Below, in pieces: positions 11,537 to 53,213 of a stretch of DNA of 64,000 nucleotides (the first letter of the stretch is position 1; every line of letters begins with the position of its first letter). Origin of the DNA: Geosiphon pyriformis uo1 (lineage: Eukaryota; Fungi; Glomeromycota). The DNA lies in the NCBI GenBank assembly GCA_016748015.1, contig JAAOMT010000786.1:685814-749813 (forward strand). The letters are read 5' to 3'. The notes under the pieces are model-generated. The model had not been told where the DNA came from and made no database searches. It worked only from the letters and a program-made list of their open reading frames with translations. The translations under genes and the position numbers were made by a program.

Positions 11537-11596
<60 letters not shown>

Positions 11597-14589: not shown

Positions 14590-14623
<34 letters not shown>

Positions 14624-18304: not shown

Positions 18305-18679
18305 TAATAATACTATAATATTAAATACTATTAATAATACTACTAAATAACATAATTATATTATTAATTATATAAATTTATTTTATAATATACAAAAAAA
18401 AAATTATAAAATTATTATTATTATTTGTTTTTAAACAAAATTTAGTTTAAAATTTATTTAAAAAATTATAATTAACTTTTATTAAAAATACAAAAAATAA
18501 ATTAAACTATTAAAAAACTATTAAATTATTATATTAAAATTTTATTAAAATTTTTTTAATTAACTATTAGAAAAGTATAATTTTTAAATATTTAATTTAA
18601 AAAATAAAAATAAAAAAGTTATTAAAAAATTATAAAATAATAATTATAAATTATAATATTATTATTTAAATATTTAACT

Positions 18680-19849
18680 AATATAAATTTTTTTTATTAT
18701 ATTTTAATAAAATATGTTTAAATACCATCTAAAACAATAAACCAAACTAAATAACTTAAATTATATATTTTTTATATATTTTTTATATATAATTAACTAT
18801 TTAATTCAGTTAAAACATTAATTAAATTAAATTAAATTAAATTAAATTAAAAGAAGCCAAAAGTAAATTTAACTTATTAAGTTTTTTAATAATAGTATTT
18901 AAATTTCTAGAATTAAAAATAAAATTATTAAAAACCAATCTAGTTTTTTTAATACTACTTTTAATTTTAGAATTATATATTTGTTATAAAGCAATTATAC
19001 AATTATATGTTTTTTTATTTAAAAAAAATGTTTTAACAATACTATATTTATTTTTATTCATATTACTAAATTTAACTTTAGCTTTAAAACTAACAAAGTT
19101 TTTAAAAATATTAAGTATAATAAACAAATTTTTTTTAACTTTGTAATTTTTACACATATTTTTAGACAAAAAAAAATAACTTAAGTAATTAAAAAACCAA
19201 TAGATTTAACAATAAATTTTATTAAAGCAATCAAACTTAAGATTTGAAATTTCAAGAAATTTAATCTAAATTTAATAACAAAATTAACAATAAAAACAAT
19301 TAAAAAAGCAGCAAAAAAAAACCAAAAAGACAAAAATTATAATATAAGTCTTATTATTAATAAAAAATAATATTAAAAACTTAAAATTAACAACAAACTT
19401 AAAAAACAACTTAAAAAAAAAGATAAAATATCTTATAATTAACAAACAAATAATTTAAACTTTAATATTTATAATAATAATAACATTTAAAAATTTTTTA
19501 TTAAATATAATATTTATATAAAGTACTAATTTTAACAATAGTAAAATTTAAAACTTTACAAAAGTCAAATATTACAACAACAAAATATTAACAATAATAA
19601 AAATTAGAAAAATAAAAAATAAAACAAATATAATTACCAATCTAAAAAATTATATTACTAATTTTAAAGATAATATAACTAAAAAAAATTAATTAATTTA
19701 ATCTTAAATGAATTATGTAAAATAATAACTTTTTTTTGATTAATAAAAAAAAAAATTCAAATATTATTTTTTTAATTAATATAGACCAGTTATCAAAAGC
19801 AATTGCAATAAAAAAAAAGTTCTTAAAAAAAACAATAATATATTATTAC
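18680..19849. repeat. Degenerate AT-rich dispersed repeat, copy B (inverted copy of 1050-2230), abutted by an LTR at 19850
   Basis: Reverse complement aligns with copy A; more AT-eroded. Confidence 0.85.
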
Positions 19850-20135
19850 TATTACAAATAAACTTAATAAAGTATATTTATAATATTTGATATTTGTAAT
19901 TTACTGTTGAAAACAGTTTGTAGATTAAATAAAATTGTTTTAAATTATATTGTAAATTATTAGTTTTTAAAAATTTTTTCTGTTTAATATTCTATTTGTT
20001 AAGTTTTTTGGTTATAAAACATAAAAATATAATTTTTCTAATTATATTGTTCTTATTATATTTTTTTCTAAGTTACTAAATACAATTATTAGAGTTTGGT
20101 ATTGTTTTTTTGTTTTTTTGTTAAGTTAACAAAAT
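19850..20135 (-). mobile_element. Left part of a decayed family-3 LTR, split by LINE-A (continues at ~36836)
   Basis: TATTACAAATAAACTTAATAA matches TGTTACAAGTAAACTTGGTGG at 61489; colinear up to ...TTAAGTTAACAAAATAAA. Confidence 0.75.
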
Positions 20136-22379
20136 AAATAAATTTTAAAAAACTTCTTTCTCTGTTACCTTCAAAAATCCTTAAAAAAGCCCATTTTTTA
20201 AAAAAGAAGTTTTTTGTTTTCTCTTATTAGTTTTTCAATATTTCTTTAAATAATAACCCTTTTGTCGTGGATTTAAAGGCTGCTTCAAACAGTAATATGT
20301 CTAAAAAAAAGGTGCTCAAGGGTGCTTTTTATGGTTCTGCTGGTGGCTCTTTTTTCCAGAAGAAGAGAGTGGTCCTGAGTAATATTAAACACTTGAATAA
20401 TGAAAAAGACATTTTTTTGAACAAGTCTGATTATGATAGCATGTATTTGGATTTGAAGAGTAAATCCAGTAGTGGAGAAGACAATATTATCATAGAAAGT
20501 GTCGACAGTAGGTCTCTTTTGGGCTCAGCAGCTAATACTTCTAAGGTAAAGAAAGTGAATACTGGTATTGTTTTTGGATCTCTTCTTGGTTCTCTTAATT
20601 ATAGTATGGATGATAATAAAGTTGTGCTTCTTTCTTGCTTGCCCATCTTTTTAGAAAAGAAATGGATAGATCCGAAGATCATCAAAACTCCAGTGAAAGT
20701 GTTGGTTAAGAAATTGTTTACTTTGGATATTAATCTTTCAGTAGTAGAAGGCAAATCTGCCACAGCAAAAACTCAGCTTATTAGAAAAATTTTTTCAACA
20801 GTCAATAGTTTTGGGGGGGCCACTACCCCCTCAAAATTTGAAGGGATCATCCAATCTACCTTCACTTCCAAAAAAAGCATGAATATGACTGCGTTATTGG
20901 CCAGAGAAAAAGGAATTGTTGTAAACACTGATCTTAAGAAACAAGGAATTCATTTAGATTGGGCTGTAGTCATCAAAAAAATTCCCATAGATATGCCAAA
21001 GGAAATGATCGTCACTGCACTAGCCAAGTTTGGTGAAATTAAGTCAATCAAAATTTAACTTATTGGATTGTGGCAAAAAGCTGTGATAGAATTTATTAAA
21101 CTAAATCAGACTGAACAATTAACTGTTAAATAGTCTTTTTTGATTGAGAAAGATTCGGTGCAAGTGGCTATGGCTGTGGGGGATTGTGAAACATGGGCAT
21201 CAAGGGACTGGTTCAGGGCTTTGTTGTTTACTTTGCCTGTGGAGATGACTGCTCATGATTTGGGCACTCTTTTGGAAGGAGTTGGTGAGAAAACTTGTAT
21301 TTTAAATCGTTCATTGAATTCTGGCAATAAAATTCACTGTGCTGTGGTTGGCTTTGAATCTGAAGATGCAATGGAATTTGCTTATTGCACTGAGCCAATA
21401 TTTGGTGATATCAAACTATTTTGGGCTAGATTGGACTTGGTTTGCTGTTAAAAATGTGGTCATCTTAACCATTCTGCTCTGGAATGTAATACACTGATTC
21501 TGCCCATTGCCAAACCTTCAAAAATTGTTAAAAAAGTTGCTTCAGAAGTCTATCATTTTTAGCTAGTAAAATTGTATGCTAAAAAATGTGTTCCTATTTC
21601 TAGATCTGCTGCCTTTAGTAGCAAATCTTGGATGCAAGTGGTTTCACTTGCTTCTCCTTCTGGTAACCCCTATTTCAACTCTGGTTCTAGGTCTGATCCT
21701 TCTCCTTCTGGTTCTTTGGGTATTAAGGAAAGCATGCTGGTTGTTCAAGATAAATCTTCAATTAATGATCACTTAGCTTTACTCAAACATTCCTTAGAAT
21801 TACTAGCTGATCAGGTGTTAAGTATTATGCGTAGATTAAATGGTGTGGAACTGGTGCTCCTGGTGCCTATTATTCAAGTTGTACATTGACATCACCGGAT
21901 ACTGATATGGTTTTGAATGTCTCATGGCCATCTCTTCCCTCTTCTTCTTTAGTATTAGAAGACAAGATGGCAGATTTAGGTCTAAGCAGTTCAAAAGTTC
22001 TTATCTCCAAAGTTGGTGGTTTGGAATCCAAGATAATGGCTCTTGAAGTTTCTATTGGCTCAATCTTGGGGAAGTTAAATCTGTTGTATATAAATTTGGG
22101 TTCTCTGGTGCATTCTTTGCATCAATGAGTAAGCTTATTTGGAAAGTGGCTATGTGCAATATTAGAGATATGACAAATTTAGCTAAACAGGAAGACATTG
22201 TTTATTGGCATAAGGATTCAGGAAATATGATTTCCATTGTTACTGAAATGAAATTGAGGTCTGATATTAGACTTTGGATCAAGAATAAATTTGATGGACT
22301 TCGGGTTTTTACTTCTGATTTGGATGTTGAGTTTTGTGGTGCTGGAGTTGCCATAATTATGAACAATTCTTTGGCTCGG

Positions 22380-23362
22380 TGTTACCAGACAAAATTAGAG
22401 ATATTGTTTAGCATGAAATTATCCTTATTAATCTTATCATTAATTAGCATATATTATCGTTTCAAATTATCACTTATTACATTAGCAAAATATATCTGAA
22501 ATTATCATTTAATTAATAACCCAATTTGTACATAACACAAATGTAACCTAATTGTGATGATCAATCATGCAATACCCTGAACTATGTAACATTCAAAAAG
22601 TTCACCAAAATTTGTAAGAAATTTGTTGAAATAATTGATAGTTCGCCAAAATATCTAATAGTTCGCAGAAATAACTTGTAGTTCACCGAAATGTATCTTT
22701 AGTTCAGCGAAATTATAGAAAATAGCAAAGTTCAAGTTCATAGAATAGTGTTATGACAAGTTGTATAAAAGAAGAGCTTCTCTCTTTGAGAAAATATATT
22801 TTATTTTAGATTTATCTCTTAAAACCATTCCTACACACACAAAAAAAAATAAATATCAAATAATTTGAAAAACCAAATTCTTTAATTATTGTACTTGAAA
22901 AATCCCCAAAACCCAACTAACATTTTGAAATTGATTAGCTACCAATTTCAGTAAACTGTTAGTGACTCCAGGCCTGGATAGAAAACGTTTCCCTTGATAA
23001 AATCCTATTTCTTTTATATTTCTTTTATTTTTCTTTTCTTTTTTCATTACAATCATTAGGGTAGCTTACAGACAAGATTCCTGTAGAAGAGTTAACTTTC
23101 ACAGCAAAGTAACTACACATTTTTAGTGAGCTTCCAGACAAGCAATTCCTGGGAAAGAGTTGACATTTACTACAACGTAACTACATAAAATAACTTGCAA
23201 GAAATTGGCTATTCTACTTATAAGTCCAGCAGTTCGAATTATAGAAGATAATTTGAAGATAAATTCAGTTACTGGAGGTTCAACCACATCCAGAAAACGT
23301 GAATTCACAGCAAACAGGCATTAACAACATTTAAGAAAAGAGACCAAAAACCTCTGGTAACA
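22380..23362 (+). repeat. Gypsy-1 5' LTR
   Basis: Direct repeat of 31286-32268; 10-bp terminal inverted repeat TGTTACCAGA/TCTGGTAACA; TATAAAAG near 22764. Confidence 0.96.
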
Positions 23363-23364
23363 TT

Positions 23365-23375
23365 TGGTGCTCTCC
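23365..23375 (+). other. Primer-binding site TGGTGCTCTCC (complementary to a tRNA ending ...GAGAGCACCA; elongator Met or Ile(UAU) plausible, unresolved)
   Basis: 2 nt after the LTR end; same core sequence in Gypsy-2 (53201-53211, minus) and decayed at 38161. Confidence 0.8.
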
Positions 23376-23376
23376 C

Positions 23377-26300
23377 ATGGAAACAACACAGCAAAAACAA
23401 ATTCAAAGTGGTGACCACACCAGATGCAACAACTCTAGAGTACTACCAGTCAATTTACACCCACTGCAAGCAAAGATTCAACATTCCAGATGGAATTGAA
23501 GTTGTCAAGAAATCAGTATACCAATACATTGAAAACTGCATCAACAATTATCTTTTTGGAAATTACAATATCTCAGAAGTTAAAAGCAACCTTTACAATA
23601 ATTTAGCACACTATTTACAGTTGGAAACTGAAAACTTTAACAGTGAAACACTTGCCACTTACTTTCAAGAACTTAATTTTAACATTATCAAGTACTGTGA
23701 AGAAACATATCCAGTGCAGTCTCAATATTCTATTGATTTTGAATTGGAAACAGAAACAAGCAACAAAGGCAAACACAAATTGAAGCAATACTCAAAAACC
23801 ACCCCAAATACTCCAATACTACCAAAAACAACTGCCAAACACTTACAAACACCTGAACAAAGAACAAGTTCAAAACTCCCACTCACCATCACACCTTTTT
23901 TAGCTTCACTTGCACAAGCACAAACACCTAATTTACCCTTGAATTGATTTGCGAGACCAGAAAATTTTACATCACTCAGAAGTTCTACCAGACAGCAAGA
24001 ACCCCTTCAAACTAGTTCCAATCTTCTTGATTTTCTAGCTGAAAATCAAAGTAAACACTCTGAGACAATAGCAAATGAAGAAAACAACTCTGAAATAACT
24101 GAAGAAGAATCAATCGACAGTGAAAACGAAGAAGACAAAATGACAGCATACATCACAAAAATCTCTGAATTTAATGGAGAAAACATTAAGACCAGTCCCC
24201 AAGAATGACTCAATTAAGTTATTAAAGCTGGAAATACAAATGAATGGAATGCTGCCAGAATGTTAAGAACAATTCCCTACTTTCTCAAAGGAACAGCAGA
24301 AGAATGGTTTGAAAACTTGGCCACTCCATTCAATGATTGGGATGCTTTCAAAGCAGCCTTCCTTGAACAGTTTACCAACAATAATACCTCCATCACCTTT
24401 TGAAATCGGTTTCACAATATCAAACAAGAATTCTCCAAATCTGTTATGACTTATATTGGGAAATTCAACAAACTTCTCAGACAAATTCGCCAACTTGAAA
24501 CAAATGATTATTATTCTGATGCTCAAATCTTGGATTAATTTATCGCTAGTTTAAAGGATAAACTGATTAAAAAGATTTGTCTACATGTCCCAAAAGATTT
24601 AAACTCTGCCATTCAGCATGCAAAAAAATATGAAATGGCCATGGAAGAAGCCAATCATACAAAACTTGTGAACTTAGCCATTGGAGAAACCAGCTCAGCA
24701 GCTAAAGAGAAAATTGACCAACTTGCAAAAAAAGTCGAAAACTATTTCACCAATCAACAACAACAGCAACTCCAAAGATATCAACCACCCCAAAGACAAA
24801 ATCAAAATAACTTTGCACCACTTTCTAATAACCAGTCTCAGAATTGCCATTACTGTGGAATCTCTGGCCACTAGAAAAGAGATTGCAGAAAGCTACAATG
24901 AGACCAACAAAATAGGAATAATCAATGTTATCCTTCACCACAGCAATCTTATTATCAACTACCACCACCAGCTCACTATCTACCAAGACCCCAATACCAA
25001 AATAACTATTATCAGCCCACCCCACAGCCAATCCAACAGCAATACCAACAACCATCCACACAATATTATCAAGTACCTGCTTGAAAACTGATTACACAAA
25101 ATCAATTCACACCACAAAACCAATACCAAGTAAACAACAATAAAATCAGTTTGAACAACCAATTGGTTCCCCAAAATTCCACTCAACCAAGACCCAACCA
25201 CTATCACACTCAACCCAGTTATCTAACAATGCCAGAAGAACAGGATTTTCACCATACTGCACCCTCGGAAGGTAGAGCTGCAGCACAACAACAAAATCCT
25301 TCCTATACTCCCATCACAATCCTACCAGCCAGAATCACTGAAAACCCCAACCTTTCAGATATATTCCCTTTTGAGTTTGAAGCAAATGAGTCACCATTCC
25401 TGCTTAGCAATACAGCCGCCAACAAACAAAAAACAATTACAGCTATGTATACTGAAGCAGAAGTTGAAGGAAAAACAATTCACTTGATCCTAGACAGTGG
25501 ATCCGCCGGAAGCATTATCACCTACTAGTTAATACAACAGTTGAAGAGAAATGTCAACCGATCAGCTCAAACAGTAATTGTCACTGCTGATAGCATGAAA
25601 AAGACCCCAGTAGGAGAAATTGACAATTTTCCGTTTACTCTTGATGGAATCACCATTCCAGTCAAAGTTTTTGTAATGGACGCACTTCAGTATCAAGCTC
25701 TTGTTAGAAATGATTGGCTCCAAAAAACCAATGCAAAATTAGACTGGAAAACCCAAGAATTACAACTCTCCCATCAAGGACAACATACCTGAGTACCCAC
25801 TACTTGTGATACATTCAACAAATGCTCTGAGAAAGCCTCGGCTTTTGAATTCAAACTGGAAGAGGAAAAACCCATCATTGAAACGTTTATGACACTTGGA
25901 TCAACCTCCAATTGGGCTGATGAAACTGAACAACAGTACTTTTCAACAAATGATTCTCTTGAAACAAAAGAACCAGTAACAACTGGATGGAATGTCCCCT
26001 ATTCAAAACCAGAACCACGAAAACAATGCCCTTACATTCTACTCAAATGCAAAGATTGCCACAAAAAACTCTTATCAATGGGAGCCTACATTTTACCTGA
26101 AGAAGAATATGAAAATCATACTTGTTATTACTGCAAAACTTGTCACAGAAAACGATAGAGCCATCTAATAAAAAGAAGTGGAAAATGGGACAACACCTCT
26201 TGTTTGACTTGTGGAGATATGCTACCAAAAGAATGCAATTGGATTGATGTAGCAATAAGAGGAGGAGTCTGTAATCAGACCTGCCAATATGCTTTATCAA

Positions 26301-29300
26301 TTTCAGAAAAAGTAAAAAGAGGAACACCCTTTAATGTGGCATATAACAGTGCTCTCAACAAACTTTATTACTACTCCCATAATGCCAAGATGATTTTTGA
26401 CCTAGCAATGGCATTAATTAATAGAGCTACCAAAGAAGATGTCCATCAAATGAAGGAAGCAGAATACATTGAATACACCATGGAATTAGCTGGATTCGAT
26501 TACGAAGATGAAGTAGAAGTCTACTACCAAATTGCAAGTTACACCTACTCAACCCAAGAAGCTCAAATTCAATGATTAGAGCAAATGAATATTAGGCTAT
26601 GTGAAGAATGCATTATGTCTTGTAATGAACAGTGGTGTCCTGAATGCTATGCTCTTAGCATCCCCTTGCCCAGTGAAAGTAATGAGAAAGAAATTGAATT
26701 TGGAGAACCTGAAGCAATGGAAGAAATTGAAACAACATCTATCTACCTTATCAAAAATCAGCCTGCCTTACAACTCAAATACTTCAACAACAATGGACAA
26801 GAAATAAAACCTGAAAAAGCACACAAAATTGATGCTGGATATGACCTAAGATATCCAGACAAGGATACTCTTGTTCTCAAACCCAAATCTCTCACAAAAA
26901 TCAACCTCAAAATTGCACTCGAAATCCCGCCAGGAGCAATGGTTCAAATCGCCTCCCAGTCTTCTCTGGCAAGCAAAGGAATCAATGTTAAAGAAGGAAT
27001 AATAAATGCTGGATATACTGGAAACATTACAGTAATGCTTCAAAATAAAACTAACAAACCATTCAAGATTGAACATGCTGAAAAAATTGCCCAAGCTATT
27101 TACCTACTCCTAATCAACATTTTGGGTTTGCAACTAGTCAATCAAAGAGAACAATTAGGAAAAAGTGATAGAGGAACTCAAGGTTTTGGTTCAACTGGAT
27201 GATTCACAGTTCCAGTTAATATAGCTCTTAACACACAGAACAAATTCCACCAGATTTTCAGACTTCTACAACCAATTACTATCTCACTCTTTGGAGAACA
27301 TTCGAAAATCTACATCTGTCCAAAGCCAACAACCACACAACAAATTTTTGAGTCCAATAAACAAGTCTGTTTGGAACATAATATTTTGATTCCAAACATT
27401 TATATTCCAGAAGAAACAAAGAAAGTCTGAGTTACTTTTTACAATCCCAACAATTACTCCATAGTTTTATTAAATAATTTAAAAATTGGAGTTATTCACA
27501 GTAATATATTTCAACAAGAATTACCCCAAACAGTTTCCGATTTCTCTAAAATTATTGGACATTCACTACCAAAAATCAACCCAAACCCCAGCTCTGAAAA
27601 CTATTATGTTGTCATGGAAAAACTATCTCGAATCAACATGGGACAACTTGAACCACAACAACAAAACCAGCTCAAAGAGCTAATTGCAGAATTTGCTGAT
27701 ATCTTTGCTGAAAACAACAATGACTTAAGAAGAACTGATTTGGTTCAACATCAAATCTACACAGAAGATGCCAAACCAAGGCAACAACAAGCCTACTGAG
27801 TTGCTCTAGAAAGCCACCAATTCATCCAAGAAGAAGTACAACAAATGCTTAACAACGGGCTCATCCAACCCTCCATAAGTTCTTGGACTTCACCTGTAGT
27901 GCTAGTTAAAAAAAAAAATGGAAAGATACAATTTTGTGTTGACTATTGACAACTCAACAGTGTTACAATTGGAGATATCTACCCCTTTCCCCAAATTGAT
28001 GACATGTTAGATGCCCTTGGAAAATTCAAATACTTTTTAACACTAGATTTAGAAAGCAGTTACTGGCAAGTTGCTATGGATTCCAAAGATTGTCCTAAAA
28101 CAACATTCACCACCTAAGATGGAAATTATGAGTTCAATGTAATGCCTTTTGGATTATGCAATGCACCAGCAATGTTTTAGAGATTAATGGATGTTGTGTA
28201 CCAAGGACTCCTTTAGAAGTCAGTAGTCATTTATCTTGACAATACTGATGTTTATTCTCCATCATTCGAATTACACTTAAAACACCTGTGAAAAGTTTTT
28301 TAACAATTACAAAAAACAGAACTAAAACTCAACATCGAAAAATGCTACTTTGGAAAAACAAGCTTGGCCTTTTTTGGTCATATCATTAGTAAAGATAGAA
28401 TCAAACTGGATTCTGGAAAAATCAGTGCTGTCAAAAACTTCAAAATTCCTTGAAACACTACAAAACTAAGAGAATTCATAGGGTTAGCTTTCTACTATCG
28501 GAAGTTTATCAAAAAATTCTCAGAAATTGCAAAATCTCTTAACCAGCTTACCACCAAAAACATTGAATACAAATGGACTGCTAAATGCCAAAATGCATTT
28601 GAAATCCTCAAAGAAAAACTAACGACAGCTCCAATTCTCACCTACCCAGATTTTGGCAACTGATTCTGATTAGCAACAGATGTCTCTTATACTGCCTTTG
28701 GTGCTATTCTATCATAATTGGATGACAATGAAAATAAGCAAGTAATTGCCTATGCTAACAGAACATTAAAACCAGCTGAAAAAAATTATCCTGCTACTGA
28801 ATTGGAAACAGCAGCTGTAATTTGGGCCCTACATTATTTCAACCTTTATCTCGGCCAAAGAAATTTAATATTATCACTTATAATATTGGACTCAAATGGT
28901 TTCAGAACAAAAATACTCAGCTAAACGCAAAACAAACCTGATGGACAGGATTTCTAGCAAACTATCGATACATAGTACATCACAAACCAGGAAAACTCCA
29001 CACTAATGTTGACTGTCTCTCCAGAATGAGACAAGATTAGAAAACACAAAAACCAACACTCAACTTAACCAACCAAAACAGCCAACAAACAATGAATTAG
29101 GAAAACTACAACAATCTCAAACAATATTTAGAAACATTAACAATCCCAACAGATTGGTCTCCAGATGAAAAACATTGACTACAACAACAAGCCAAACAAT
29201 ATTTTCTACACAACAACATTATTTATCATCAAAATTTCAAAAACCCAGACAAACCACTCAGATTAATACAAGAACAAGAAAAAAAGACTATTATACAACA

Positions 29301-30476
29301 TGTACTCAGATCTTTCATCAGCACACTTCGGAAAAGACAGCACCACCCAAAGAACACTAGAATACTACTTTTGGCCTCGAATAAGAAAAAACATTCATGA
29401 ATATATCGAATCTTGTGATAGTTGTCAAAGAAGAGAAGGAACACACCCTACTGAATCATTAAATCCAATCAAAGTTGGACAGCCTTTTGACTGAGTTGGT
29501 ATCAATTTAGTCAGACCACTCCCTATTACAAACCAAGGAAACTATTATATTGCAGTAGCTGTAAACTATCTTACCAAATGGCCTGAAGCCAGAGCTATTC
29601 AATGAGCAGATGCGAAATCAGTAGCAAACTTCATCTATGAAGACATCATTTGTAGACATGGATGCTCAATAGAACTTTTATCTGATCAAGGAACACACTT
29701 TGTGAACAACCTGATACAAAAAATTTGCGAACAATTCAATGTCAAAAGGCCTCTGTCTTCATTCTACCATCCACAAACAAACAGACTTGTGGAACGTTTT
29801 AACAGAACATTGTGTGAGTCATTAGCCAAAGTCTCAACCAATTTTGAGCAAGAGTGGGATATCTTTATTCCATCAATGTTATTAGCATATAGAACACTAA
29901 AACAAGATACCACAAAACACACACCATTTGATTTAACTTATGGAAGAACAGCAACATTACCAATTAGTTTTATAGTGGAAACATACCCAGCACAACCAAT
30001 CAATAAAAACAATTTTCAGGAAACACTACAACAAAGAGCCTACACTCTGCTTAACACATTGGAAGGAAAACGACGAATAGTAGCAACTCATATTGAACAT
30101 TCTCAAGCTCAACAAAAAAAAAGACATGACAACAAATTACCACCTATTACCAATGAATTTAAAGTTAAAAATAAAGTTCTCTTACACAGAACTAAAGCTG
30201 AAAAACAATGGAGTGAAAAATTTGAAAATAAATGAGATGAACCATTCTTTATCTATGAAATTCTAGGCAACGGATCATATAAGCTAAGACTTGATGACAA
30301 AATCCTAGCAAAAGTTGCACATAGAGATCATTTGAAACACTATAATTCCAGAAACAATCCTGAACCATTAATTCCACAAATTGGCACACATTCCCCTTTA
30401 ATCAATCCTGAAGATATTCTCTGGAATTTAGAATCAATAGTTGTCATTGAACAACCTCCCAACTTGAACACTTAAT
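23377..30476 (+). pseudogene. Gypsy-1 gag-pol (stops/frameshifts): gag ~23377-25300, protease ~25430-25790, Cys-rich ~26040-26650, dUTPase ~26770-27200, RT ~27620-28600, RNase H ~28610-29040, integrase ~29092-30476
   Basis: CHYCGISGHxKRDC; LILDSGSAGSII; DAGYDL...GIINAGYTG...RGTQGFGSTG; VMPFGLCNAP, YLDN; LATDVS; HFG...CDSCQ, SDQGTHF, VERFNRTL. Confidence 0.92.
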
Positions 30477-30597
30477 TTAAATTTATTATTATAGTTATAT
30501 CATTATAATTTAGAAACAATCTCACAAAAACAAAACAAAAATAACATAAAAACCCATACACCAAAAATAATTTTCTTTTATTTTCAAATCTCTTATA

Positions 30598-31317
30598 ATG
30601 ACTATTCCTCAAAACATTCAACAATTATCCCAAAAACTAATGTTAGCTTTAAAAACAATACCCAAATTATCTATTACTGTTACTGGAAACCACATTAATT
30701 ATACCTAAACAGAAGTAGTTACAAATTTAGCCCCAAATTCACGAAAATATCACCCATATAAGAAGAACACAAAAAGTTATTCTGGAATTCACCTGCCAGA
30801 ACTTTTAAAGCTTGCTTTAAGAGAAAATTTAATGTTCACTCCTATTAGTATTCCACCAAATACTACTATTCAACAAAAACTTCAACTGTGTCTTAATGAA
30901 GAAAACCATGACTATACTCCAATATATAGATATTTCTACATTGGAAAAACACTTCACAAACAAAAATGGGAGCTTACAGCAGCAAACCTCACAAAAGAAG
31001 CTATTCAAAAACAACTCCACAATGAATTCAAAACAACAGCTGGACCTATAAACAGTCGCTATAAACTAAAAGCTGCTCTTAGACTTTATGACCTATTCCA
31101 CACCTGTGAAAACGTCCTACAAAACCCAATTTTACAATCTTTGAAGATTCAATACATCGGAAAGCTCACAGAACTGAAATTTTAACAATTTTCAGACCAA
31201 ATTTCTTCAATAATTTTGGATTATTATCTGGAAATTACAGACAGTACTTGGACTTCGACGGAGCTCAATCTTGAGGAGGAGGTTATGTTACCAGATGAAA
31301 TTAGAGATATTGTTTAG
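30598..31317 (+). pseudogene. Gypsy-1 3' accessory ORF of unknown function (~240 codons, two in-frame TAA), reading through the PPT into the 3' LTR
   Basis: ATG 30598 is in frame with ORF-track 30832-31185; homologous ORFs lie at the same position in Gypsy-2 and Gypsy-3. Confidence 0.75.
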
Positions 31318-32268
31318 CATGAAATTACCCTTATAAATCTTATTATTAATTAGCATATATTATTATTTCAAATTATCACTTATTATATTAGCAAAATATA
31401 TCTGAAATTATCATTTAATTAATAACCCAATTTATACATAACACAAATGTAATCTAATTGTGATGATCAATTATGCAATACCCTGAACTATATAACATTC
31501 AAAAAGTTTACCGAAATTTGTAAGAAATTTGCCAAAATAATTGATAGTTTGCCAAAATATCTAATAGTTCGCAGAAATAACTTGTAGTTCACCGAAATGT
31601 ATCTTTAATTCAGCAAAATTATAGAAAATAGCAAAGTTCAAGTTCATAAAATAGTATTACGACAAGTTGTATAAAAGAAGAGCTTCTCTCTTTGAGAAAA
31701 TATATCTTACTTTAGATTTATCTCTTAAAACCATTCCTACACACACAAAAAAAAATAAATATCAAATAATTCGAAAAACCAAATTCTTTAATTATTGTAC
31801 TTGGAAAATTCTCAAAACCCAACTAACATTTCAAAATTGATTAGCTACCAATTTCAGTAAACTGTTAGTGACTCCAGGCCTGGATAGAAAATGTTTCCCT
31901 TGACAGAATTCTATTTCTTTTACATTTCTTTTATTTTTCTTTTATTTTTTGATTACAATCATTAGGGTAGTCTACAGACAAGATTCCTGTAGAAGAGTTG
32001 ACTTTTACAGCAAAGTAACTACACATTTTTAGTGAGCTTTCAAACGAGCAATTCCTGGGAAAGAGTTGACGTTTACTACAACATAACTACATAAAGTAAC
32101 TGGCAAGGAATTGGCCATTTCACTTATAAGCCCAGTAGTTCAAATTATAGGAGATAATTTGAAGATAAATTCAGTTACTGGAGGTTCAACCACATCCAAA
32201 AAACGTGAATTCACAGCAAACAGGCATCAACAACATTTAAAAAAAGAGACCAAAAACCTTCAGTAACA
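31286..32268 (+). repeat. Gypsy-1 3' LTR
   Basis: Direct repeat of 22380-23362, differing mostly by C/T and G/A transitions. Confidence 0.96.
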
Positions 32269-35200
32269 TTGGCATGTTTTGAAAGTAGATGAGGTTCCTA
32301 GTCATTTGATTTCTGTGCACCTTTTGTTTAAGAACAAGCTTTTAGTTACAATCTTGGATCTGTATACTGGTGCATCTATCAACACACAATTTAGTCAGGC
32401 TGCTAACATCAATTCTATGGTTTCTAAGGCAGTCAATTCTAGCTCTTTTGTGGTTTTGGGCAGTGACTTTAATGAAAATGGGTCTGGCAAAAGTGCAAGT
32501 TTCAAGTTCTGTTTGGGTTTGGGCCTAGTTAATACTTTTAATGGACACTCATTGGCCAAGGCTTTCACCTGGGGCAACTCTAGAAGTGTTGAGAGAGTAA
32601 TTGATTTATTTTAGTAAGTTGAAATTTGGCATCTGCTATGACATTGCATTTTGTCAATAATGTGTTTAAGTTTTTTGATACAGATCATAAGTCTGTTTCT
32701 GTTTTGATTGATTTGGGTGGGCTGCTGGATACACATCTTATTAGCATTTGCAAACAAGCCAACCAAGACCAGTAGAAGGTTAAATTAAAGGATGCAGATA
32801 ATATTCAGTGGTTAAGCTTTAAAGACTGCTTTTCTGCCAAGCTGTTGGCTAGGTTAGACATGTTTAAGAAGGCAAAAGTCAATGGTGACTTGAATACAAT
32901 GTGGAAAATATTGGAAGAAGCCATAGTTCAGACTGCTGACACAGCTTTTTTTAGGATCTGGTATAGTGAATATGACTGTTTGAGGAATAAACAATCTTCC
33001 AAATTCTTTGAATTAGACCTGCTTGTTGCAAAAGTTGTGAAATGTTAGAACTCTGGTGATCTCCTAAATTTCAACCACCTTATTAAGGTGTGGTTGGCTA
33101 TTAATGTAGTCAAAGCTTTTAAAATTGATGACATAGTTTTGAATGGTGTGAGCTCAATGGAGTTGATTAAACATTTATCAGTAGTGAAGAAAGGGTATTG
33201 TAAGTCCAAGTATTATAAGTCTAAGATTGCTGAGAATACCACTATAAGGAAGACAATTGACCGTCATATGGAAAACTTTTGTTCTGACAAAGGAAAGATG
33301 ATAAAGAGCATTCTGGAATGTCCATTTCACAAGATGGTTTTGGATCACTTGGTTGTGGATGATAAGCTGGTGATTGAGCTTAATAAAGTAAAGCTCAAGA
33401 TTGATGAAATTATGGAAGAATGGACAAGAAAGTGATCAGTTCTTCCAAAAATACCTGACCTCTGGGCTCGACAATATATGCTTCTGAATTATATAGATGA
33501 TAATACTTTCTCTAGTGTAATGGTTGAAATTGGTATGGAGGAATTGTTTTTGGTTGTTGATGATCTGCCAAACAATAAAGCAGCCAGGTTATCTGAGATA
33601 CCTAATAAACTCTGGAAACATTGTGGTGAGGAGGTTTTGGCCTGTCTTTTGAAATTGTTGAATTTGTGTTTGAATATGGGTGCAGTTCCTAATCTGTGAA
33701 AGAAGGCGTGAATTTCAATAATTCTGAAACCTTATGAGTAGAATGGTGTTTTAATAAATACCAGATCTATTGCATTGGTCGAAATAGCACATAAAATACT
33801 ATTTAAGATCTTGTCTAATTGAATATCTTTGGCTTGTAGCAAGTTTAATGTTCTTTGTAGTGACAATTTTTTGGTATTGAAGAGTACTTTGACCCAGTCT
33901 CTTATATTTGCTATTGGCTCAGTTGTTGAGGATGTTTTGGAAAAAAACAGGGAGTTTTAATTAGTGCTGCAGGATATGTACAAAACTTATGATTTAGTAG
34001 GCTGGTATCATTTGCGAGTAAGCTTGTATTGTATCAAAATGTGTGAACATTTCATCCAATTTTTTGGCAACATTCATGGGGACTGGATCAATAGGGTGAT
34101 AACCGACTTTAGGCTTTGGATAGTTATAGAGTACATAATGGGTTGGATCAAGGAGAAGTCTTTTCCTTGCTGCTTTGAAGAATATTTTATGATCCACATT
34201 TGTGTGAAGTAAAAAGGCATAAGCACTTATGTGAATATAGGGTTGATTCTAAGTTTGTAGCAAAGTCTGGCAGGATTGAAGTGAGTGGTAGGAAAACCTC
34301 TTTTTTGGCTGTGGGAGCTTTTGTTGATGATACGATTTGAGTCAAAAGTAGTTAAGTATCTATGCAGTATATTTTGAACATTGCAAGTGAATTTTTTGTA
34401 ATTAATGACATCTCAATTAATAATAATAAGATAATAACAATTTCTATCAATTAGGAAGTTAGAGATGCTTTGCTATTAATCAATGGATTGCCAATTTTGA
34501 TTGCTAAAAAGTGTAAGTCACACCAATATTTGGGTATTTTCCTGTCAACTGAGGGTCTCTTTAAGTCCAATTTGGTTCAAGCCCATAAGAATGTCAGGTT
34601 TTTTTCTAATATAGTGTTAAGAAAAGCTATTATGAACAAACAATTCTGTTATTTGGTCTTGGCAGTTTTGCAGCCTATTGTTAACTATTGTGTGCAGTTC
34701 AGTTTTGTTACTTTAGATGTGTGTTGTAAGTAGAATATTATAATTAAAAAAGGTTTTAAAGCCAAAGCTAGTTTACCACATGACTTTCCCAGTAAAGTCT
34801 TACACCATTCTTCTTTATATGTTTTGAAGTCCTTTGAGCAAGTGCAGTCTGAAGAAAAGCTGGCATTACTGATTTTATTTTTTAATGGCCATGGCATTTT
34901 TAGGTGTTTGTTTAATCATAAATTTTTGGATTTGCAAGGTCTGAGATGGTCTCCTTTGAATCTTTTGCAATTTTCTGTTAGGTTGCATGTTAGTTCTGTA
35001 AACAATTTTTTGGCAGGGGTGGTGAAAATTTTTTTGGAGAATAAATTATCTTTGGTAAACAATTTATTTTGTGCCTTCTGTGGGTCCAGCAATTTTCTGA
35101 TGTCTAACATTTTGGGTCAGTCTTTGTATTACAAATCTGTTTTTTCATTGAAGCATTTTGGTGTTGCTTTTGGTAACAGAATTCTTGACAAGAGAGGAAG

Positions 35201-36835
35201 AGTGATGGACTGGAAAACATTTTGGTGTTGAAAGCAATTAGACCCAAGAGGCCCTGTGTCTTACTGGTTTTCTTTGACATCTGATTTTATGAACAATTGT
35301 GTTTCTTTGGGAGTCGGAGCTGCTACTACTGCTAAAGAGGATGTGCTGAGTGTTTTGGATTCTGATAGGTTCTCTGAAGTTCGTGATAGTCTTCTGGAAA
35401 TGTGGTCTAATTGTATTGAGGCTTATACAGATGGGTTTTTAAGATATGCTGGTTCTGTTGGAATAACAGGTGGTGCAGTTACATACTTTCCAGCTGTGAA
35501 TGCAAGCATTGGAGTTAAGGTTGCTGGACTTTTGTCCTCTACTTTAACTGAGTTGTAAGCTGTGGTGTTGGCTTTGGAGTGTGTTCCATCTTCTTGCTCA
35601 GGGGTTTTGTATTCAGATAGTCAATCTGCAATTGATGCCTACATTTCTGAGGCTTTTTCAACTACACCTGATTTCTGTAACCAATGTTGGATTAAAAGAT
35701 TGCATATTGTCAATCTCTTTAAAGACAAGAATATTTCAATTAAGTGGGTGAAGGTTAAAAGACATTCAAATGTGTTGGACAACATAAGGGCTGACATGCT
35801 GGCTAATGAGGCTACTTTCTCATCTCTTTTTTTGCCAGTTAAAATCTGGAAAAGGTTTCTAGTCACTGAAAAAACTGCCATATCTGGCAATGTTTGTCAT
35901 TTTGCTCAGGACTTATACTGGTCAATATGCTGTGCCCATTGGGAGGCTGGTTCAGATTTTGATATAGTTCTAAACATTATAATTAAGGAAATAAATTGGA
36001 ATACTACTGCAGCAATTTGGCATCTTGATTGACACATGCTTTCTGGGTTTACCAGTAGAAAGTCAGCCAATTTGTGCATGTATTTGATGAAGGCTGTATA
36101 TAGATGGCTGCCAATTGTAGTTAGAAAAAGGTTGTATAGCAAAAGTTATCCTAATGTTTTGTGTTTGGTGTGTGGTGAGGTGAAGTTTTCTGATCATGTT
36201 TTCGCTTGTTCTGATGACTCTGGTCTCTGTGAAGACATTTTGGTTAAAGCTGCTAAAAAATGGATATCAATGTCTGGTCTTTCGAGTTCATTCCCATCTA
36301 CTATTTTGCTTTCACTCTCATTATGTTTTTTAGATATGAGTCTTTATACAGCAGTGTACAAGGGTTTTGTAATAAGAGATTGGTATGCTGAAGTTGTTTC
36401 AGTTTTTGAGAATAAAAAAAAAGCTATTCAAACTTTAGTGGAATACATCAGGTTTCAACACACTTGGATATGAACTGTTAAGACCAAGCACAGAGTGGAA
36501 ATAAAAAAAGCTGGCTTAGTTGGAGATAATAGTGTGATTTCTGGCTTGTCCAGCAGTATAGTTTCTACATTGTCAGATGGTGTTGTTCGCATGCTTGGTG
36601 TTATAGAATCTTTTGCTGTTAGGTTTGATAGGTGCAAATTGTGTCGTTTTTTCTCTGGTTTAAGTGATAATGCTTTTGTTACTATAGGTATGTAGTATTG
36701 TCTTGTCTGGCCCGAGTAGCTGGCCACATATAGTTTGTGTATAAGCTGCATTTAGTTGGTTCCACTTAGTTTGGTTCTATGTACTAAATAGTGGTTGGGC
36801 TTTACTTGTAAAACTTGTAATAAAAAATAAAATAA

Positions 36836-37500
36836 AATTAATACTTAAATATAAAAAGAGCTTTTTTTTATTAAGCTATCATAAAATTTATTTCTAAATA
36901 GTTAATTTTTAATGTTATTACTCTACAAAAAAGAAAAAAAATTAAAATAAAATTAAAATTAAAATTAAAAAAAAATTTTAATATTATTAATTACTATAAT
37001 TAAAAACAATTGGTCCAAATTATTATAGTTTTAAAGTATTTTTATGTTAATAGTATTTGATTTAAAGCAAAGATAAAAAAGACAATTGATTTAATTTTAA
37101 TAATCAAAATATTGAAATCATATACATGTAAATTAAATGATAAAATTTTATTAAATTGATTTATAAATATATATAAGATAAAATTAATTAAATTAAAATT
37201 AAAATATTAGAAAAAAAATAATTTTTGTTTTTTTTTTACTGTTTTTTTTTATTTATTAAAATTATTTACTTTTATATATGTTTTTTAGTTTTATAAAATT
37301 GTTTTTAATTACTTGTTATAATTAATTATTGCTTGCTATTTTAGCTATTACTATGTTTTTTTATGCTATAATTAATTATTTTGTACTATTTTGTATTATT
37401 ATGTATTATTTTGTATTATTTTAAGTTATTTTGTGTTATTTTATATTATTTTGTTTTATTCTGTTATTATAATTGAAACTTATAGTTTTTATTAATTATT
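36836..37500 (-). mobile_element. Right part of the split, decayed family-3 LTR
   Basis: AAAGAGCTTTTTTTTATTAAGCTATCATAAAATTTATTTCTAAATAGTTAATTTT is colinear with 61797ff and 39163ff; right end approximate. Confidence 0.7.
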
Positions 37501-38843: not shown

Positions 38844-39856
38844 TGTTACAGATAAACTTGGTGGTATAGAATGATAATGTTTGGTGTTCACAATTTGGGT
38901 TTTTAGAGAGCTTTTGAAGATTTTTTTTTAGTAAGTCTGTTTAATATGTTAATATTATTAGTCTCTAAAAGTCTTTTTAATTAATGTGAATTTATCTGTA
39001 GAGTTTTTTGTTTATAAAACACAAAAAGATGGTTTTGTGGTGTTGCAATTTTGTATATGTAAACTATTTTCTCTAAGTTAGTTAAGCATAGCACTAAGAT
39101 CTGGTGGTGTTTTTTTATTTTTCTGATAAGTTAATAAGATAATGTTAATATCCAATTCTAAAAAAAGCTTTTCTCTTTTATCAGGCTATTATAAAGTTTA
39201 TTTCCAGACAGTTAATTTTATGTTGTTAATTCACAAAAGAAAACAAAAAATAAAATAAAAAGAAATAAAAAATAAATAAAATAAAAAAAGAGAAATTAGT
39301 ATTATCAATTGCCATAATTAAAAGCAATTGGTTCAAGTTATAATGATTTGTGATGGTTTTATGCTAAGAGCATCTAGCCAAGAATAAAAATAAGAACAAA
39401 ATTAATTTAGCTAATATGTAAAAACAGAAATTATATAGATGTAGATTTTGGGTTTTTAATATTTTTTTTTATTTCAGTAATATAAAATATAAGATATAAT
39501 AAGGAATATATAGCAGATATAAGTAAAAGAAAATTGATTCTTGTTTTTTCTGTTTGTCTTTTTATTTTCTACAACTATTTTTTTTTATATATTTTTTTTA
39601 GTTTTATAAAACTGCTTTTGATTATTTCATTATTACTAATTATTGCTTGCTATTTTTGTTATTGTTTTATTTCTCTATATTATTACTAGTTATCTTAAGT
39701 TTAACTAGTTTTTTTGTGTTATATTGTGTTTTTGCATTTTGTATTGTGTTATTTTGTGTTATTACACGTTATTCTGTGTTTTTTTGTATTATTCTGTATT
39801 ATTTTATGTTATCACATTTTTTTATAATTTGAATTGGTTTTTCTACTTAAGTAATA
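38844..39856 (-). mobile_element. Solo LTR of family 3 (no TSD)
   Basis: TGTTACAGATAAACTTGGTGG...TTCTACTTAAGTAATA is colinear with 61489-62563. Confidence 0.85.
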
Positions 39857-42800
39857 TCAGCACCTGTTATTCACACTGTTTTTTTTGGTGGTATATCATA
39901 AATTAAGATTGTTGGTGGATTCTTTTTTTCTTCTCTTCTCATAAGAAATAATTCAGTAAACTTTGGCTTCTTTTTGGAGATGAAGTCTTTTTTACTTGTG
40001 TTTAAAAAATTAAATAGTAGATTTACTATTTTTGAGTGCAGTTTTACCAGTCTCATAGAGCAAGTTGGTGAGCTAGCTAAGAGGTTGAATGTATTTAGAC
40101 CAACAGTTTTCTAGTATAGCTCTGAATATTAACTATTAATAACTCTTTTATTACAGAATTAAGAATGAATATAATAATAAATAAGAGTTTAAATATAATT
40201 ACTAATAATAAAACTGTTGTAAAAGCAATGGTTTTTAATCCATTAGTTGTTTCAAAGTTAGAAGAAAATATGAATAGTTTATTGGCTATGGTTATAAGCT
40301 TAATAACCAAAATAAACAAAATTAGTTTAAATTTAAATACTTGTTCTTTCAAATGACCAGTTTAATTTAAAAAATAGCTGTATGCAATGTTAAGAAAATA
40401 AACAATTTGGTTAAGCAAAAAAATATTGTTAAATGGCATAAAAAATCAAATAATCTAATTTCTATTATTACTGAAATAAAATTGAAAAAACAACAGATAT
40501 TATGAATAAAAAACAAGTTTTCTAATATGAAAGTGTTTGTGTCTGGTTTGGATTCTGGTTATCTTGGTTTAAAATAGCAATAATTATGAATAATTTAATT
40601 GCTTAGCATGTATTCAAAGTATTAGAAATTCCAAGTTATTTTCTATTAATTCACTTTTTGTTTAAAGATAGTCTTTTAGTTGTAATCTTGAGTATATATA
40701 CTAATGTTTTAGTAGATACATGTTTTGGCCAAGCTGGTAAAATGAACTCATTTATTTTCAAAGCTATCAGTTCTGAAATCTTTGTGGTACTAAGTAGTAA
40801 CTTCAATGAGAATATAATAGAAAAAAGTACTAGCTTTAGTAAATATTATAGTTTAGATTTACATAACTTATTTATAAAAGATTTTTCAACTAAGATACTA
40901 ATATAAAGCAATTTTAGAAATATAAAAAAGACTATTGATTATATTTTTGTCAATGAACATTTGTTGTCAGTAATTATTAACTATAGAGTTTTTAATATAA
41001 CTGAGTTTTTTAATATTGACCACAAAGCTATAACAATTTTGTTTGACATTAATGGCTTTTTGGATGTTTATTTAAATAAAGTGTGCAAACAAATTAATTG
41101 TAATTATTAGAAATTTAAATTAAAAAATGCAAATAGGTTGAAGTAAACTTATTTTAAAAAAAACATATTATTAAGCTTAGATTTAGCTTAGCATAAATTT
41201 CAAACAGCAAAAAATCAAGATGTTTTAAACAGAATATAAAATTGTTTGTAAAAAGTGGTAATAGATTTGGTAAAAAAGTTTTTTCTAAAATATGATACAA
41301 TAAGTTTAATACATTAAAAAATAAACAGTTTTCAAAATTTTTCAGGTTGGAATTATTGGTTTTTAAGATAGTCAAGACTTTTTTCTTTAAAAATAATTTT
41401 GAATTTAACCAGTTCATAAAAGTATAATTAGTGGTTGATCATAACAAAGCTTTAGTTGTCAAGTTATTGGTTAAACAAAAAATTAGATCTGAAAAAGTTT
41501 TTGGTTATCTGTTTGAAGCTAGAAAAAAATATCATGTATTAAAGTTTCAGGAATTAAAGACTGCTAAGGCATTAGTCATTAGAGAAACTATTAATAAAAG
41601 AATAAAAAATTTTAACACAGACAAAGACTGCATAATAAAAATTGTTCTAAAATAATTATTCTAAAAGATAGTATTAGATTATTTGGTGGCTGATAATAAG
41701 TTAGTGCTAAAGCCAGATAAGATAAAAAATAAAGTAGACAATATTATAGAAGATTAAACAAAAAAGAGCTTGGTACTAGATATTATGTCTGATTTCTGGT
41801 TTTATTAGTATGCTCTTTTGGAGCATATAAATAATAGTGCATTTTTTGGGATAATAAAAAACATCAGTTTTAAGGAATTAAAACAGATTGTTGGCTGTCT
41901 TCCTGATGGCAAAACAGCTGGTTTATCAGGTATTTTAAATGAATTGTAAAAGCATAGCAGTAATAATATCTTAAAGTGTTTTTTGGATCTATTAAATAGT
42001 TGTTTGATTTTGGGATTTGTTTTTGTGTTTTAAAAAAAGGCTTGGGTTTTTATAATTCTAAAACTTTATGATTGGAAAGATGTGTTAATAAATACAAAAA
42101 ATTGTGTTGATTGAAACAGCAAGAAAGATCTTTTTAAAAATTTTGTCAAATTGCATATTTTTTGCTTGTGTTAAGTTTAATGTGTTTCATAAGACAAATT
42201 TTTCAGTGCTTAAAAACACATCTACTCAGAATCCTATTTTTGTGGTGAACTTAATTGTTAAAAATACTTTGGAGAAAGACAAGAAAATATGACTGGTTTT
42301 GTAAAATATGCAAAAGGCTTATAACTCAATTGGCTAAATTTATATACAGCAGAGTTTGAAGCATATAAAAATGTCTAAGAGATTTGTTGTGTTTTTTGGC
42401 AATTTGCATAAAAACCAAGTTAATAGGATAATAACAGATTTTGGCTTCTTAAAAAGTTATAAAGTACACAATAGACTGGATCAAGATAAGATTTTTTTAC
42501 CACTTCTTTGAAGAATATTTTATGATTCTGTTTTATGTAAGATCAAAAGACATAAAAATTTATGCAGTTATTATATTAACACCAAGTTTGTTGCCAAATT
42601 AGAAAAAGTGAAAGCCAATTCAAACAGAATGTTATTTTTTGTAGCTGGAACTTTGTTGATAATATAATTTAAATAGGAAGTAGTTATATTTCTACTCAAT
42701 ATATTTTGGATATTACTAGCAAGTTTTTTTTTATCAATAATGTTTTAATAAAAAATAAAAAAACTGTGGCTATTTCTATCAATCAGAGAATTAAAGTTGC

Positions 42801-44049
42801 TTTCTTGTCTATAAACAGCTTGCTAATTACAATTGCATAAAAAAATGTGCTATACAGATATTTGAATATCTTTTTTTCAACAAAGGATTTGTTCAAATCC
42901 AGCTTGGCAAGATGCATTTGAATGTAAAATTTTTTTTTTAATATGGTATTAAAAAAAACTTTTTCAGATAAATGGTTTTTGTATTTGGTTTTAGCTATAC
43001 TACAGCCAATTATAATTATAGAATGCAATTTAGTTTTATCTTAAAAAGTATATATAACAAATAGAATACTTTAATTAAAAAGAGACTTAAGACCAAGACT
43101 AATCTACTAAGAAACTTTTTTGGTAAATTTTTGTATTATTTATCTTTGTATAAATTGAAATTATTTGAATAAATACAAGCTAAAGATAAGATCACATTAA
43201 TAACAGCTTTTTTTAATATTACTGGTATTTTTGGTAGGCTGTTTAAACACTATTTTTTGGATTTACAGATTTTAGGGTGGATGTTTTTAACCTTTTTGCA
43301 ATTCCCTGTAAAATTAAAAGTTAGTCTAATGAACAATTTTTTGATAGGATTGGTTAAACTTTTTTTGGACAACAAAATCTCTTTGGTTAACAATTTATCT
43401 AGTGCTTTTTATCATGCAAGCAAATTTTCAATGTTAGTGATTTGGAAAATTTTTGTTATTATGACATAGTCAATTTATTAAAGCATTATGAGATGGCTTT
43501 TGATAATAGACTTTTGGACAAATATTAAATAATTGTAAATTAGAAAATATTTTATTATTAGAAAAGACTAAATTCAAGAAGTTTAATACCATATTAATTT
43601 GTTATTGTTTTTGGATTTATGTTTGCTTTTTGTTATAAGTCTTCTTAAACACTATTATTTAATAATTTTAATAATGTTTTGAATTAGAACTATTTATATT
43701 AAGTTTGGTCTAAAAGTTTTAATGTTTATATTAATAAATTTTTAAAGAATAAGAGTTTATTTTCTGTGGTTTGTGAAATGGTAGTTTATTTTCTAAATGT
43801 TGATTTGAGTATTGGAGTAAAGATTCAAAATTTGGTTTCATTAACAATAGCAAAATTACAAGCAGTTGTATTGGTTTTAGAATGTGTTTTTATGTTTTTT
43901 TAGTAGTCTTGTATTTAAATAGTCAAGTAATAATAGACATATGTATTTCTGATTTAGAGCTTTGGCAGCCTAATTTTTATAATGTTTGCTGATTGGAATA
44001 CAGACATATTGTTAATTTAATTAGAGATAAAAATCTAATAGTTAAATAG

Positions 44050-44824: not shown

Positions 44825-44829
44825 TTATT

Positions 44830-45476: not shown

Positions 45477-45534
45477 TTTTCTGATGTCTTTTGTTATGTC
45501 TACTATGTCTTTATATACTCTTTTTATTGTTCAA

Positions 45535-50132: not shown

Positions 50133-50163
<31 letters not shown>

Positions 50164-53180: not shown

Positions 53181-53213
53181 TCTATAGGATTATATTTCAC
53201 AGAGAGCACCAAA

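Follow-up and report, generated by a model that had tools for sequence, protein, structure and literature searches.

A conserved non-envelope accessory gene behind a separate integrase ORF in Ty3/gypsy retrotransposons of Geosiphon pyriformis

Introduction

The role of the extra, non-envelope ORFs that are carried by some LTR retrotransposons is an open question (PMC7264820). Plant elements such as Athila and Bagy2 carry an env-like sense ORF, aORF-3S, in the interval from pol to the 3′ LTR; aORFs in antisense orientation are represented by gene23 of Grande, by RIRE2 and Retand, and by the fungal Boty (PMC7264820). LTR elements are given as covering 41.2% of the genome of the glomeromycete Geosiphon pyriformis (PMC11952901). 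A 64,000-nucleotide stretch of this genome (contig JAAOMT010000786.1, forward-strand positions 685,814–749,813; hereafter the window, to which all coordinates refer) contains three Gypsy elements with an ORF between integrase and the polypurine tract (PPT), which raises the question of what this ORF is and what it might do. The accessory ORF is a conserved, selected, non-Env gene of a fungal Ty3/gypsy lineage, with a fixed place after a separate integrase. The gene family is real, new and uncharacterized, and the Gypsy lineage that carries it was unusual to begin with, although other elements are known to have extra ORFs in the same interval.

Results

Structure of the elements and the separate integrase ORF

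Three LTR elements were delimited in the window: E1 (22380–32270, + strand), E2 (44052–54007, − strand) and E3, which is truncated by the window end. The 5′ LTR of E1 (22380–23364, +) has TG...CA ends and is followed by a PBS-like TTTGGTG, and its 3′ LTR (31286–32270, +) is 93.6% identical to the 5′ copy. The E1 flanks (22376–22379 and 32271–32274) read TCGG and TTGG, a 4-bp target duplication in which a CG pair carries one transition. LTR pairing placed the 5′ LTR of E2 at 53216–54007 (−) and its 3′ LTR at 44052–44827 (−), with 86.7% identity between them and a 4-bp duplication, CTAT/CTAT. TG...CA LTR ends, PBS, PPT and a short target duplication, as in Ty3/gypsy elements, are present; Pfam detected a Ty3-type capsid, an aspartic protease, a dUTPase, a reverse transcriptase (RT) and an H2C2 integrase, and the order gag–protease–RT–RNase H–integrase is that of Gypsy.

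In E1, the gag capsid, protease, dUTPase, RT and RNase H share a single decayed frame (24140–29040, +), with a frameshift near 28900 and a TAG at 29038–29040. The integrase begins with its own ATG and forms a separate, decayed ORF (29092–30475, +), as does the decayed integrase of E2 (45537–46913, −). The dUTPase sits between protease and RT in both E1 (26576–27199, +) and E2 (48228–49526, −), preceded in E1 by a Cys-rich stretch (about 25990–26620). An RNase H stop followed by a new integrase ATG was seen in all three elements examined (E1, E2 and L001, an element on a metagenome contig that is described below), and integrase in these three does not appear to lie inside one Pol polyprotein, as it does by the usual Ty3/gypsy definition. 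The separate integrase ORF, which the initial annotation did not mention, bears on the expression mechanism.

The spacers from the RNase H stop to the integrase ATG measure 51, 30 and 24 nt (29038–29094, +; 46911–46946, −; L001, 772–801). All three are multiples of three (1 in 27 by chance), so that in-frame read-through is possible beside reinitiation. The TAG after the E1 RNase H showed zero variants at ≥10% among 738 contigs; a different TAG, just within the E1 integrase, is copy-specific. Ahead of the accessory ORF lies an AT-rich spacer of 60–316 nt, which is free of ATG in three of four elements and in E1 (30476–30597, +) comprises 122 nt at 16% GC with zero ATG. A shared splice-acceptor position was not found in the four elements, the last AG lying 84, 4, 10 and 71 nt ahead of the ORF start. 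With a stop after RNase H, an integrase ATG and an accessory ORF, the element consists of three cistrons; as the accessory ORF is the third of them, its product is expected from a subgenomic RNA or by reinitiation.

Other repeats were also noted in the window. Two further LTR-like copies are related to the E3 LTR (36934–37464, 38954–39815 and 61587–62438; 69% for the second) and bear tandem 10-bp repeats of the type TTATTTTGTG. Another kind of repeated element occurs at 33699–35191 and 42033–43521, its copies matching at 66%, and an RNase H domain lies close by (35559–36029). Between the arms of a 1.4-kb inverted repeat pair (1022–2401 and 18523–19871; 75%, about 16 kb apart) are a gene for a thiamine-pyrophosphate enzyme and an ORF for a dual-specificity phosphatase (12563–14977, −). 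At 10855–11622, all six frames are open for ~230 codons beside a long A run, probably reflecting low-complexity sequence or an assembly feature.

The accessory ORFs and their homology

The accessory ORF of E1 (30598–31317, +) runs from ATG to TAG over 239 codons, the final 10 of which lie inside the 3′ LTR, and is broken by two internal TAA codons (30706–30708 and 31183–31185). In the contigs of sequencing run X1, C was read at 30706 in 222409 of 222831 depth and at 31183 in 787493 of 876394. Homologues at 82–88% identity are intact, and many database copies are uninterrupted at 239 amino acids. Both stops are therefore attributed to decay particular to one copy. The E2 ORF (44806–45476, −) starts at an ATG at 45476 and contains a frameshift near 45390–45330 and several stops. 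The E3 ORF (62578–63315, −) has four internal stops and ends at a TAA (62580–62578) ahead of the PPT. An ORF between integrase and PPT, as initially annotated, was borne out in all three elements; the start proposed for E3 (63186) was not, the true start being at 63315, where E3 reads ATA and family members have Met at the same place.

Homology of the three ORFs, which had been proposed from motif blocks common to them, was upheld by formal alignment, and every motif quoted in the initial annotation was found. Local alignment scores were 92 for E1–E2, 104 for E1–E3 and 206 for E2–E3, against codon-shuffle maxima of 56–60, and pairs among E1, E2, E3 and L001 lay at z values of 10–30 above 300 codon shuffles. 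True-frame alignments outscored all off-frame pairings tried. BLASTP comparisons across families gave E-values of 1e-6, 2e-5 and 6e-19, at an identity of just 24–34%.

Distribution of homologues

A search with the E1 ORF returned 198 matches among 369 candidates; all 120 matches listed were hypothetical proteins of G. pyriformis, the best of those listed being 88% identical over the whole length. With the E3 ORF as query, 32 relatives were obtained among 246 candidates, again all from Geosiphon. When 1.84 billion representatives were searched with a profile, 90 matches were obtained, 77 of them with new identifiers. Twenty of these were inspected: 18 were from Geosiphon, and two (P0201 and P0202) were JGI/ENA records of full length, 28–30% identical to the E1 family, with the same PPT-derived peptide as the C terminus of P0202. 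Most of the remaining 57 were >55% identical to Geosiphon references. Divided by identity and inspection, the accessory proteins sort into about eight groups, two of which come from metagenome or ENA records.

In a metagenome scan, 2 of 256 candidate stretches were confirmed. The order in L001 is RT–RNase H, stop, integrase, spacer, accessory ORF, PPT and LTR; its integrase has its own ATG and one internal TGA, its spacer before the accessory ORF is AT-rich, 316 nt long and contains two ATGs, and its accessory ORF is intact (230 codons) at the same position as in the window elements. No relatives outside such elements were identified among the protein and metagenome matches inspected, and phage records and viral contigs gave zero matches to the accessory protein. 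No description of the ORF was found in the literature; supplements, Repbase, GyDB and the AMF repeat library lay outside this search and may already mark it. Many Geosiphon “hypothetical proteins” are one transposon gene, which affects gene-family and effector counts in these mycorrhizal-type fungi.

Selection and divergence

Selection was assessed at the protein level by comparing fixed with rare differences between two subfamilies across residues 15–216. A length filter kept 75 of 120 proteins, 72 of which fell into the two subfamilies (45 and 27); the set was clustered at 90% and is biased to open frames. The 43 fixed differences were milder than the 195 rare ones (mean BLOSUM 0.35 versus −0.44, p = 0.003). 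Fixed differences per site amounted to 0.11 in the core versus 0.52 in the linker, compared with 0.93 versus 1.33 for rare differences (Fisher p = 0.004). As fixed changes are conservative and avoid the helical core, the accessory ORF is under purifying selection, in line with the selected function claimed for it initially. Raw codon-position identities were set aside as proof of selection because protein-guided alignment inflates position 2. Changes among copies are mostly transitions.

Between families, the accessory ORF diverges faster than integrase (24–34% versus 54–62% identity, the latter for the integrase core). The integrase 3′ halves are almost equidistant (62–66%) and so uninformative on co-descent. 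The closest accessory ORF pairs, E2–E3 and E1–L001, are the pairs with residual LTR similarity (90 nt at 74% and 25 nt, respectively). The LTRs of the window elements had been described as not alignable by eye, which holds for E1 against E2 and E3 but not fully for E2 against E3.

A conserved motif at the polypurine tract

The motif GGAGCTCAAT has a palindromic GAGCTC core and lies directly 5′ of the PPT in all families, translated in differing frames. In E1, motif and PPT occupy 31260–31282 (+), with the PPT at 31273–31282 and the LTR from 31286. The motif lies at 44831–44853 (−) in E2, adjoining the PPT, and at 62570–62592 (−) in E3, where with the PPT it spans 62564–62592 and the LTR starts at 62563. 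Motif plus PPT occurs three times in the window, once per element, versus 0.03 expected; L001 also bears the motif, at about 3090. It probably acts in cis, as a signal for priming of the plus strand or for end formation.

The E1-type groups translate the motif/PPT DNA as ELxLEEExMLP and stop once ~10 codons of the LTR have been read. In the E2 and E3 families and in one additional group, the same DNA is read in another frame as GAQY/F with a stop ahead of the PPT, E2-family ORFs terminating at GAQY immediately before it. The initial annotation had the E1 frame running through the PPT into the 3′ LTR, and it does cross the PPT, ending 32 nt past the LTR start; the parallel it drew with the position of nef fails, with only ~10 codons in the LTR and a conserved C-terminal peptide that is the PPT/LTR end read as protein. 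Since the E2 and E3 families use the same DNA motif in another frame and have a stop behind it, the LTR overlap is best explained as a by-product of the cis element and not as a Nef-like design. Nef has a frame largely overlapping U3 and an N-terminal myristoylation Gly. Neither feature was seen here: the overlap of ~10 codons is confined to the E1-type groups, and full-length proteins start with MT, MS, MI, MD, MN or ME.

Predicted anatomy of the accessory protein

The best 19-residue hydropathy mean was ≤1.29 in all 10 accessory proteins, which indicates that the protein is without a membrane segment and agrees, as judged by hydropathy, with the initial view that it is not Env. The full-length model (pLDDT 73) contains a helix at residues 5–19, a hairpin at 24–37, a low-confidence linker at 39–64 and helices up to residue 220; the 158-residue helical core of L001, modeled alone, reached a pLDDT of 91 and a pTM of 0.86. 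The predicted architecture is thus an N-terminal helix plus hairpin, a disordered basic linker with a PY motif and a compact all-helical core, which in E1 is encoded at 30916–31245 (+, about residues 107–216) and is a candidate helix-turn-helix nucleic-acid-binding domain. Among the columns kept across groups are Y-x-Y-F/Y-x-I/L-G, G-K-x-N, A-x-x-R-L-Y-x-x-F and I-N-x-x-G-x-I/L-T. The net charge of the entire protein varies between −8 and +20. A homodimer prediction, in which the alignment was not used, scored 0.01 and weighs neither way.

The PY-NLS-type motif of E1, RKYHPY (30742–30759, +), lies within the basic linker, where disorder is predicted. R/K/H-x2–5-PY was found in the linker of 18 of 22 proteins and in seven of eight groups, against 2–5% per sequence on shuffling, so that the match to the PY-NLS consensus seen at first in two copies is kept beyond chance. 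Within 15 residues of the motif, the net charge is +1 to +6 in the 18 proteins that have it. In the E2 group, the motif is present in none of four proteins and the basic linker is kept. The rules described for PY-NLSs comprise R/K/H-x2–5-PY, basic character and a disordered segment of at least 30 residues (PMC2408616); the linker below pLDDT 50 (residues 39–64) measures 26 residues and is borderline by this rule, with pLDDT as a proxy for disorder.

Resemblances of the helical core

As initially annotated, no known domain could be assigned: Pfam gave zero families at E ≤0.01 for the E1 ORF, a PDB sequence search gave zero matches at E ≤1, and Foldseek gave zero matches at E ≤0.001, both when the full model was compared with the PDB and viral libraries and when the core was compared with the viral library. 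The best VIA-align Z values were 5.3 for the full model and 4.5–4.8 for the core, which prove the fold neither different nor new. These sequence and structure searches barely covered the N-terminal module (residues 1–37). The top Atlas match for the core was a cluster of 156 features from Mucoromycota, whose score of 0.93 was equaled by unrelated clusters; a Mucoromycota relative matching it was not found in three protein searches. PHROG 23683 was rejected as a lead (best E 2.8e-5; 11 of 32 rows, all of E1 type) after a search of 201 genomes gave one weak match in a frame unreadable as a relative.

The remaining leads, each weak, point to DNA-binding domains. Pfam DUF1016_N matched the accessory protein at E 0.05–0.12, far under the cut-off, and a DUF1016 cluster appeared in Atlas at 0.85. 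Among 50 structural rows were four ParB-family DNA-binding domains at Z 3.2–4.3, with unrelated helical rows of equal Z alongside: 1vz0 (Z 4.3, rmsd 5.2, 92 aligned), 1r71 (3.3, 5.0, 96), 3mky (3.3, 4.8, 94) and 6s6h (3.2, 3.1, 59), the first three alignments (92–96 residues) spanning nearly the whole core. Local HHalign of the core gave 0.8% to DUF1016_N and 0.2–0.3% to ParB, inside the shuffle range. A global profile alignment of the core with DUF1016_N (81 columns, E 0.027, bounds picked after seeing the data) beat 40 of 40 block shuffles and kept four motifs in order; the same test against ParB failed. As a control, DUF1016_N (the N-terminal part of YhcG) was aligned with the ParB helix-turn-helix profile (loci L004–L084 versus L085–L145), and the HHalign value of 92% over 91 columns indicates that these two are related to each other. 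The DUF1016_N set consisted of 72 stop-free N-terminal stretches from 81 loci, from which most near-identical enterobacterial rows were then dropped; the ParB set had 43 rows, with 7 of 61 loci skipped, and one wrong-frame row was present in the local HHalign and removed for the global test.

The core shares with the ParB/KorB/SopB DNA-binding domain and DUF1016_N an order of helices and motifs (an aromatic-x-IG helix, a Gly turn, a helix and GKL/I-T/S), together with the weak alignment and structural rows. By local profile comparison and by Z, this likeness is below significance. A ParB CTPase or a nuclease domain is absent from the accessory protein, which resides in a eukaryotic mobile element. 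That the core is a helix-turn-helix DNA-binding domain is suggested by these models and profiles at somewhat under an even chance.

Discussion

Function of the accessory protein

Our preferred reading, put forward tentatively and with rather less than even confidence, is that the accessory product may be a nuclear DNA-binding regulator of the LTR of its own element, in the manner of foamy-virus Tas. Such a regulator would be expressed from a subgenomic RNA or by reinitiation, imported into the nucleus via its PY motif by the transportin/Kap104 route, and bound to DNA through a ParB/DUF1016_N-like helix-turn-helix, the family-specific residues of which would read family-specific LTR sites; acting in trans, it would switch on or protect transcription of its own element family. 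Two points favor it: DNA-binding domains are what the fold leads suggest, and the closest ORF pairs match the LTR-sharing pairs. It is weakened by a helix-turn-helix assignment below significance, by an E2 family without the PY motif and by the wide charge range (−8 to +20), and the present evidence fits DNA, RNA or protein binding alike. When sequence 5′ of the ORF was compared with the LTR, no shared word stood clearly above chance, save a T-rich run in E1 (1 of 40 shuffles). In a fuller form, which we consider unlikely, these would be “complex” fungal retrotransposons made up of gag-pro-dUTPase-RT-RNase H, an integrase and a captured prokaryote-type ParB/DUF1016_N helix-turn-helix regulator that reads its own LTR. 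If true, fungi would have arrived independently at an equivalent of the retroviral Tas or Tat, and this might help to explain how about 41% of the Geosiphon genome came to consist of LTR elements.

The protein might instead act on element RNA, either in nuclear export, like Rev and CERV, or in reinitiation for integrase, like TAV; we regard this as doubtful, though a genuine contender. Both integrase and the accessory ORF have a start of their own that follows a stop, three of the four spacers ahead of the accessory ORF are ATG-free, CERV offers a precedent (PMC10309623), TAV is reported to promote reinitiation after long ORFs (PMC5902531), and PY-NLSs are described from RNA-binding proteins, among them hnRNPs, Hrp1 and Nab2 (PMC2408616). 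However, Pfam gave zero RNA-binding or TAV domains at E ≤1, the fold leads favor DNA-binding domains, reinitiation needs no nuclear signal, and the L001 spacer, with its 316 nt and two ATGs, is a poor fit to scanning. The place of the ORF, always directly after integrase, would also suit an integrase partner that imports the pre-integration complex or steers targeting in place of an apparently missing chromodomain, none having been detected in the C-terminal half of the L001 integrase. A PY motif and a DNA-binding-like core would be apt for such a tether, but divergence much faster than that of integrase fits poorly with a conserved interface, and a separate ORF has no evident route into particles, making this role distinctly unlikely.

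Fast divergence under constraint is what might be expected of a counter-defense protein whose targets are silencing factors of the host, from its RNAi or DNA-methylation machinery, and not element nucleic acid. For Rhizophagus, transposon silencing in mycorrhizal fungi is described as working through small RNAs and CG methylation (bioRxiv 10.1101/2021.03.30.436303), and the differences between copies are mainly transitions. The heavy load of transitions nevertheless means that any protection is incomplete, and no known suppressor domain was found in Pfam; we give this explanation a slim chance. That the ORF is a neutral passenger, or the decayed remnant of a movement or envelope-like protein, is very improbable and largely refuted: the ORF occupies the env position and all three window copies are broken, but a hydrophobic segment is absent, the model is helical and soluble, there is a selection signal, the L001 copy is intact, and the stops are confined to individual copies. 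The accessory protein is small, soluble and confidently folded, and its diverged families are each paired with their own LTR.

Comparison with known systems

The plant and fungal aORFs resemble the accessory ORF in being family-wide, in occupying the same interval and in their obscure origin and function. The plant sense aORFs are described as env-like, and membrane domains are present in some; GENE23 of Grande, which is nuclear and has its own promoter (PMC7264820), is antisense; the accessory ORF is, by these descriptions, set apart as sense, soluble, fungal and located behind a stand-alone integrase. LTR elements of bdelloid rotifers also carry a non-Env ORF3, in dUTPase-carrying lineages as in the window elements, but the ORF3s described are recognizable enzymes, namely a GDSL esterase and a DEDDy exonuclease (PMC5408684), whereas the accessory protein has zero Pfam matches and no evident catalytic motif. 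The caulimovirus TAV/P6 is likewise an accessory ORF of a reverse-transcribing element with several consecutive ORFs on its RNA; it is described as acting on ribosomes (PMC5902531) and has no homology to the accessory protein. CERV of the Caenorhabditis elegans element Cer1 is another novel nuclear accessory protein of an LTR retrotransposon, with a spliced mRNA and demonstrated RNA export in the account given (PMC10309623); for the accessory gene, neither homology to CERV nor a splice form is in evidence. Tas (Bel1) of foamy viruses is similarly small, encoded 3′ of the replication genes and adjoining the 3′ LTR, and is described as nuclear (PMC8003144). Tas comes from an env-bearing retrovirus of vertebrates, with an internal promoter and transactivation both demonstrated (PMC8003144), whereas the accessory gene is carried by an element without env and the two proteins are without homology; Tas accordingly serves here as a functional model.
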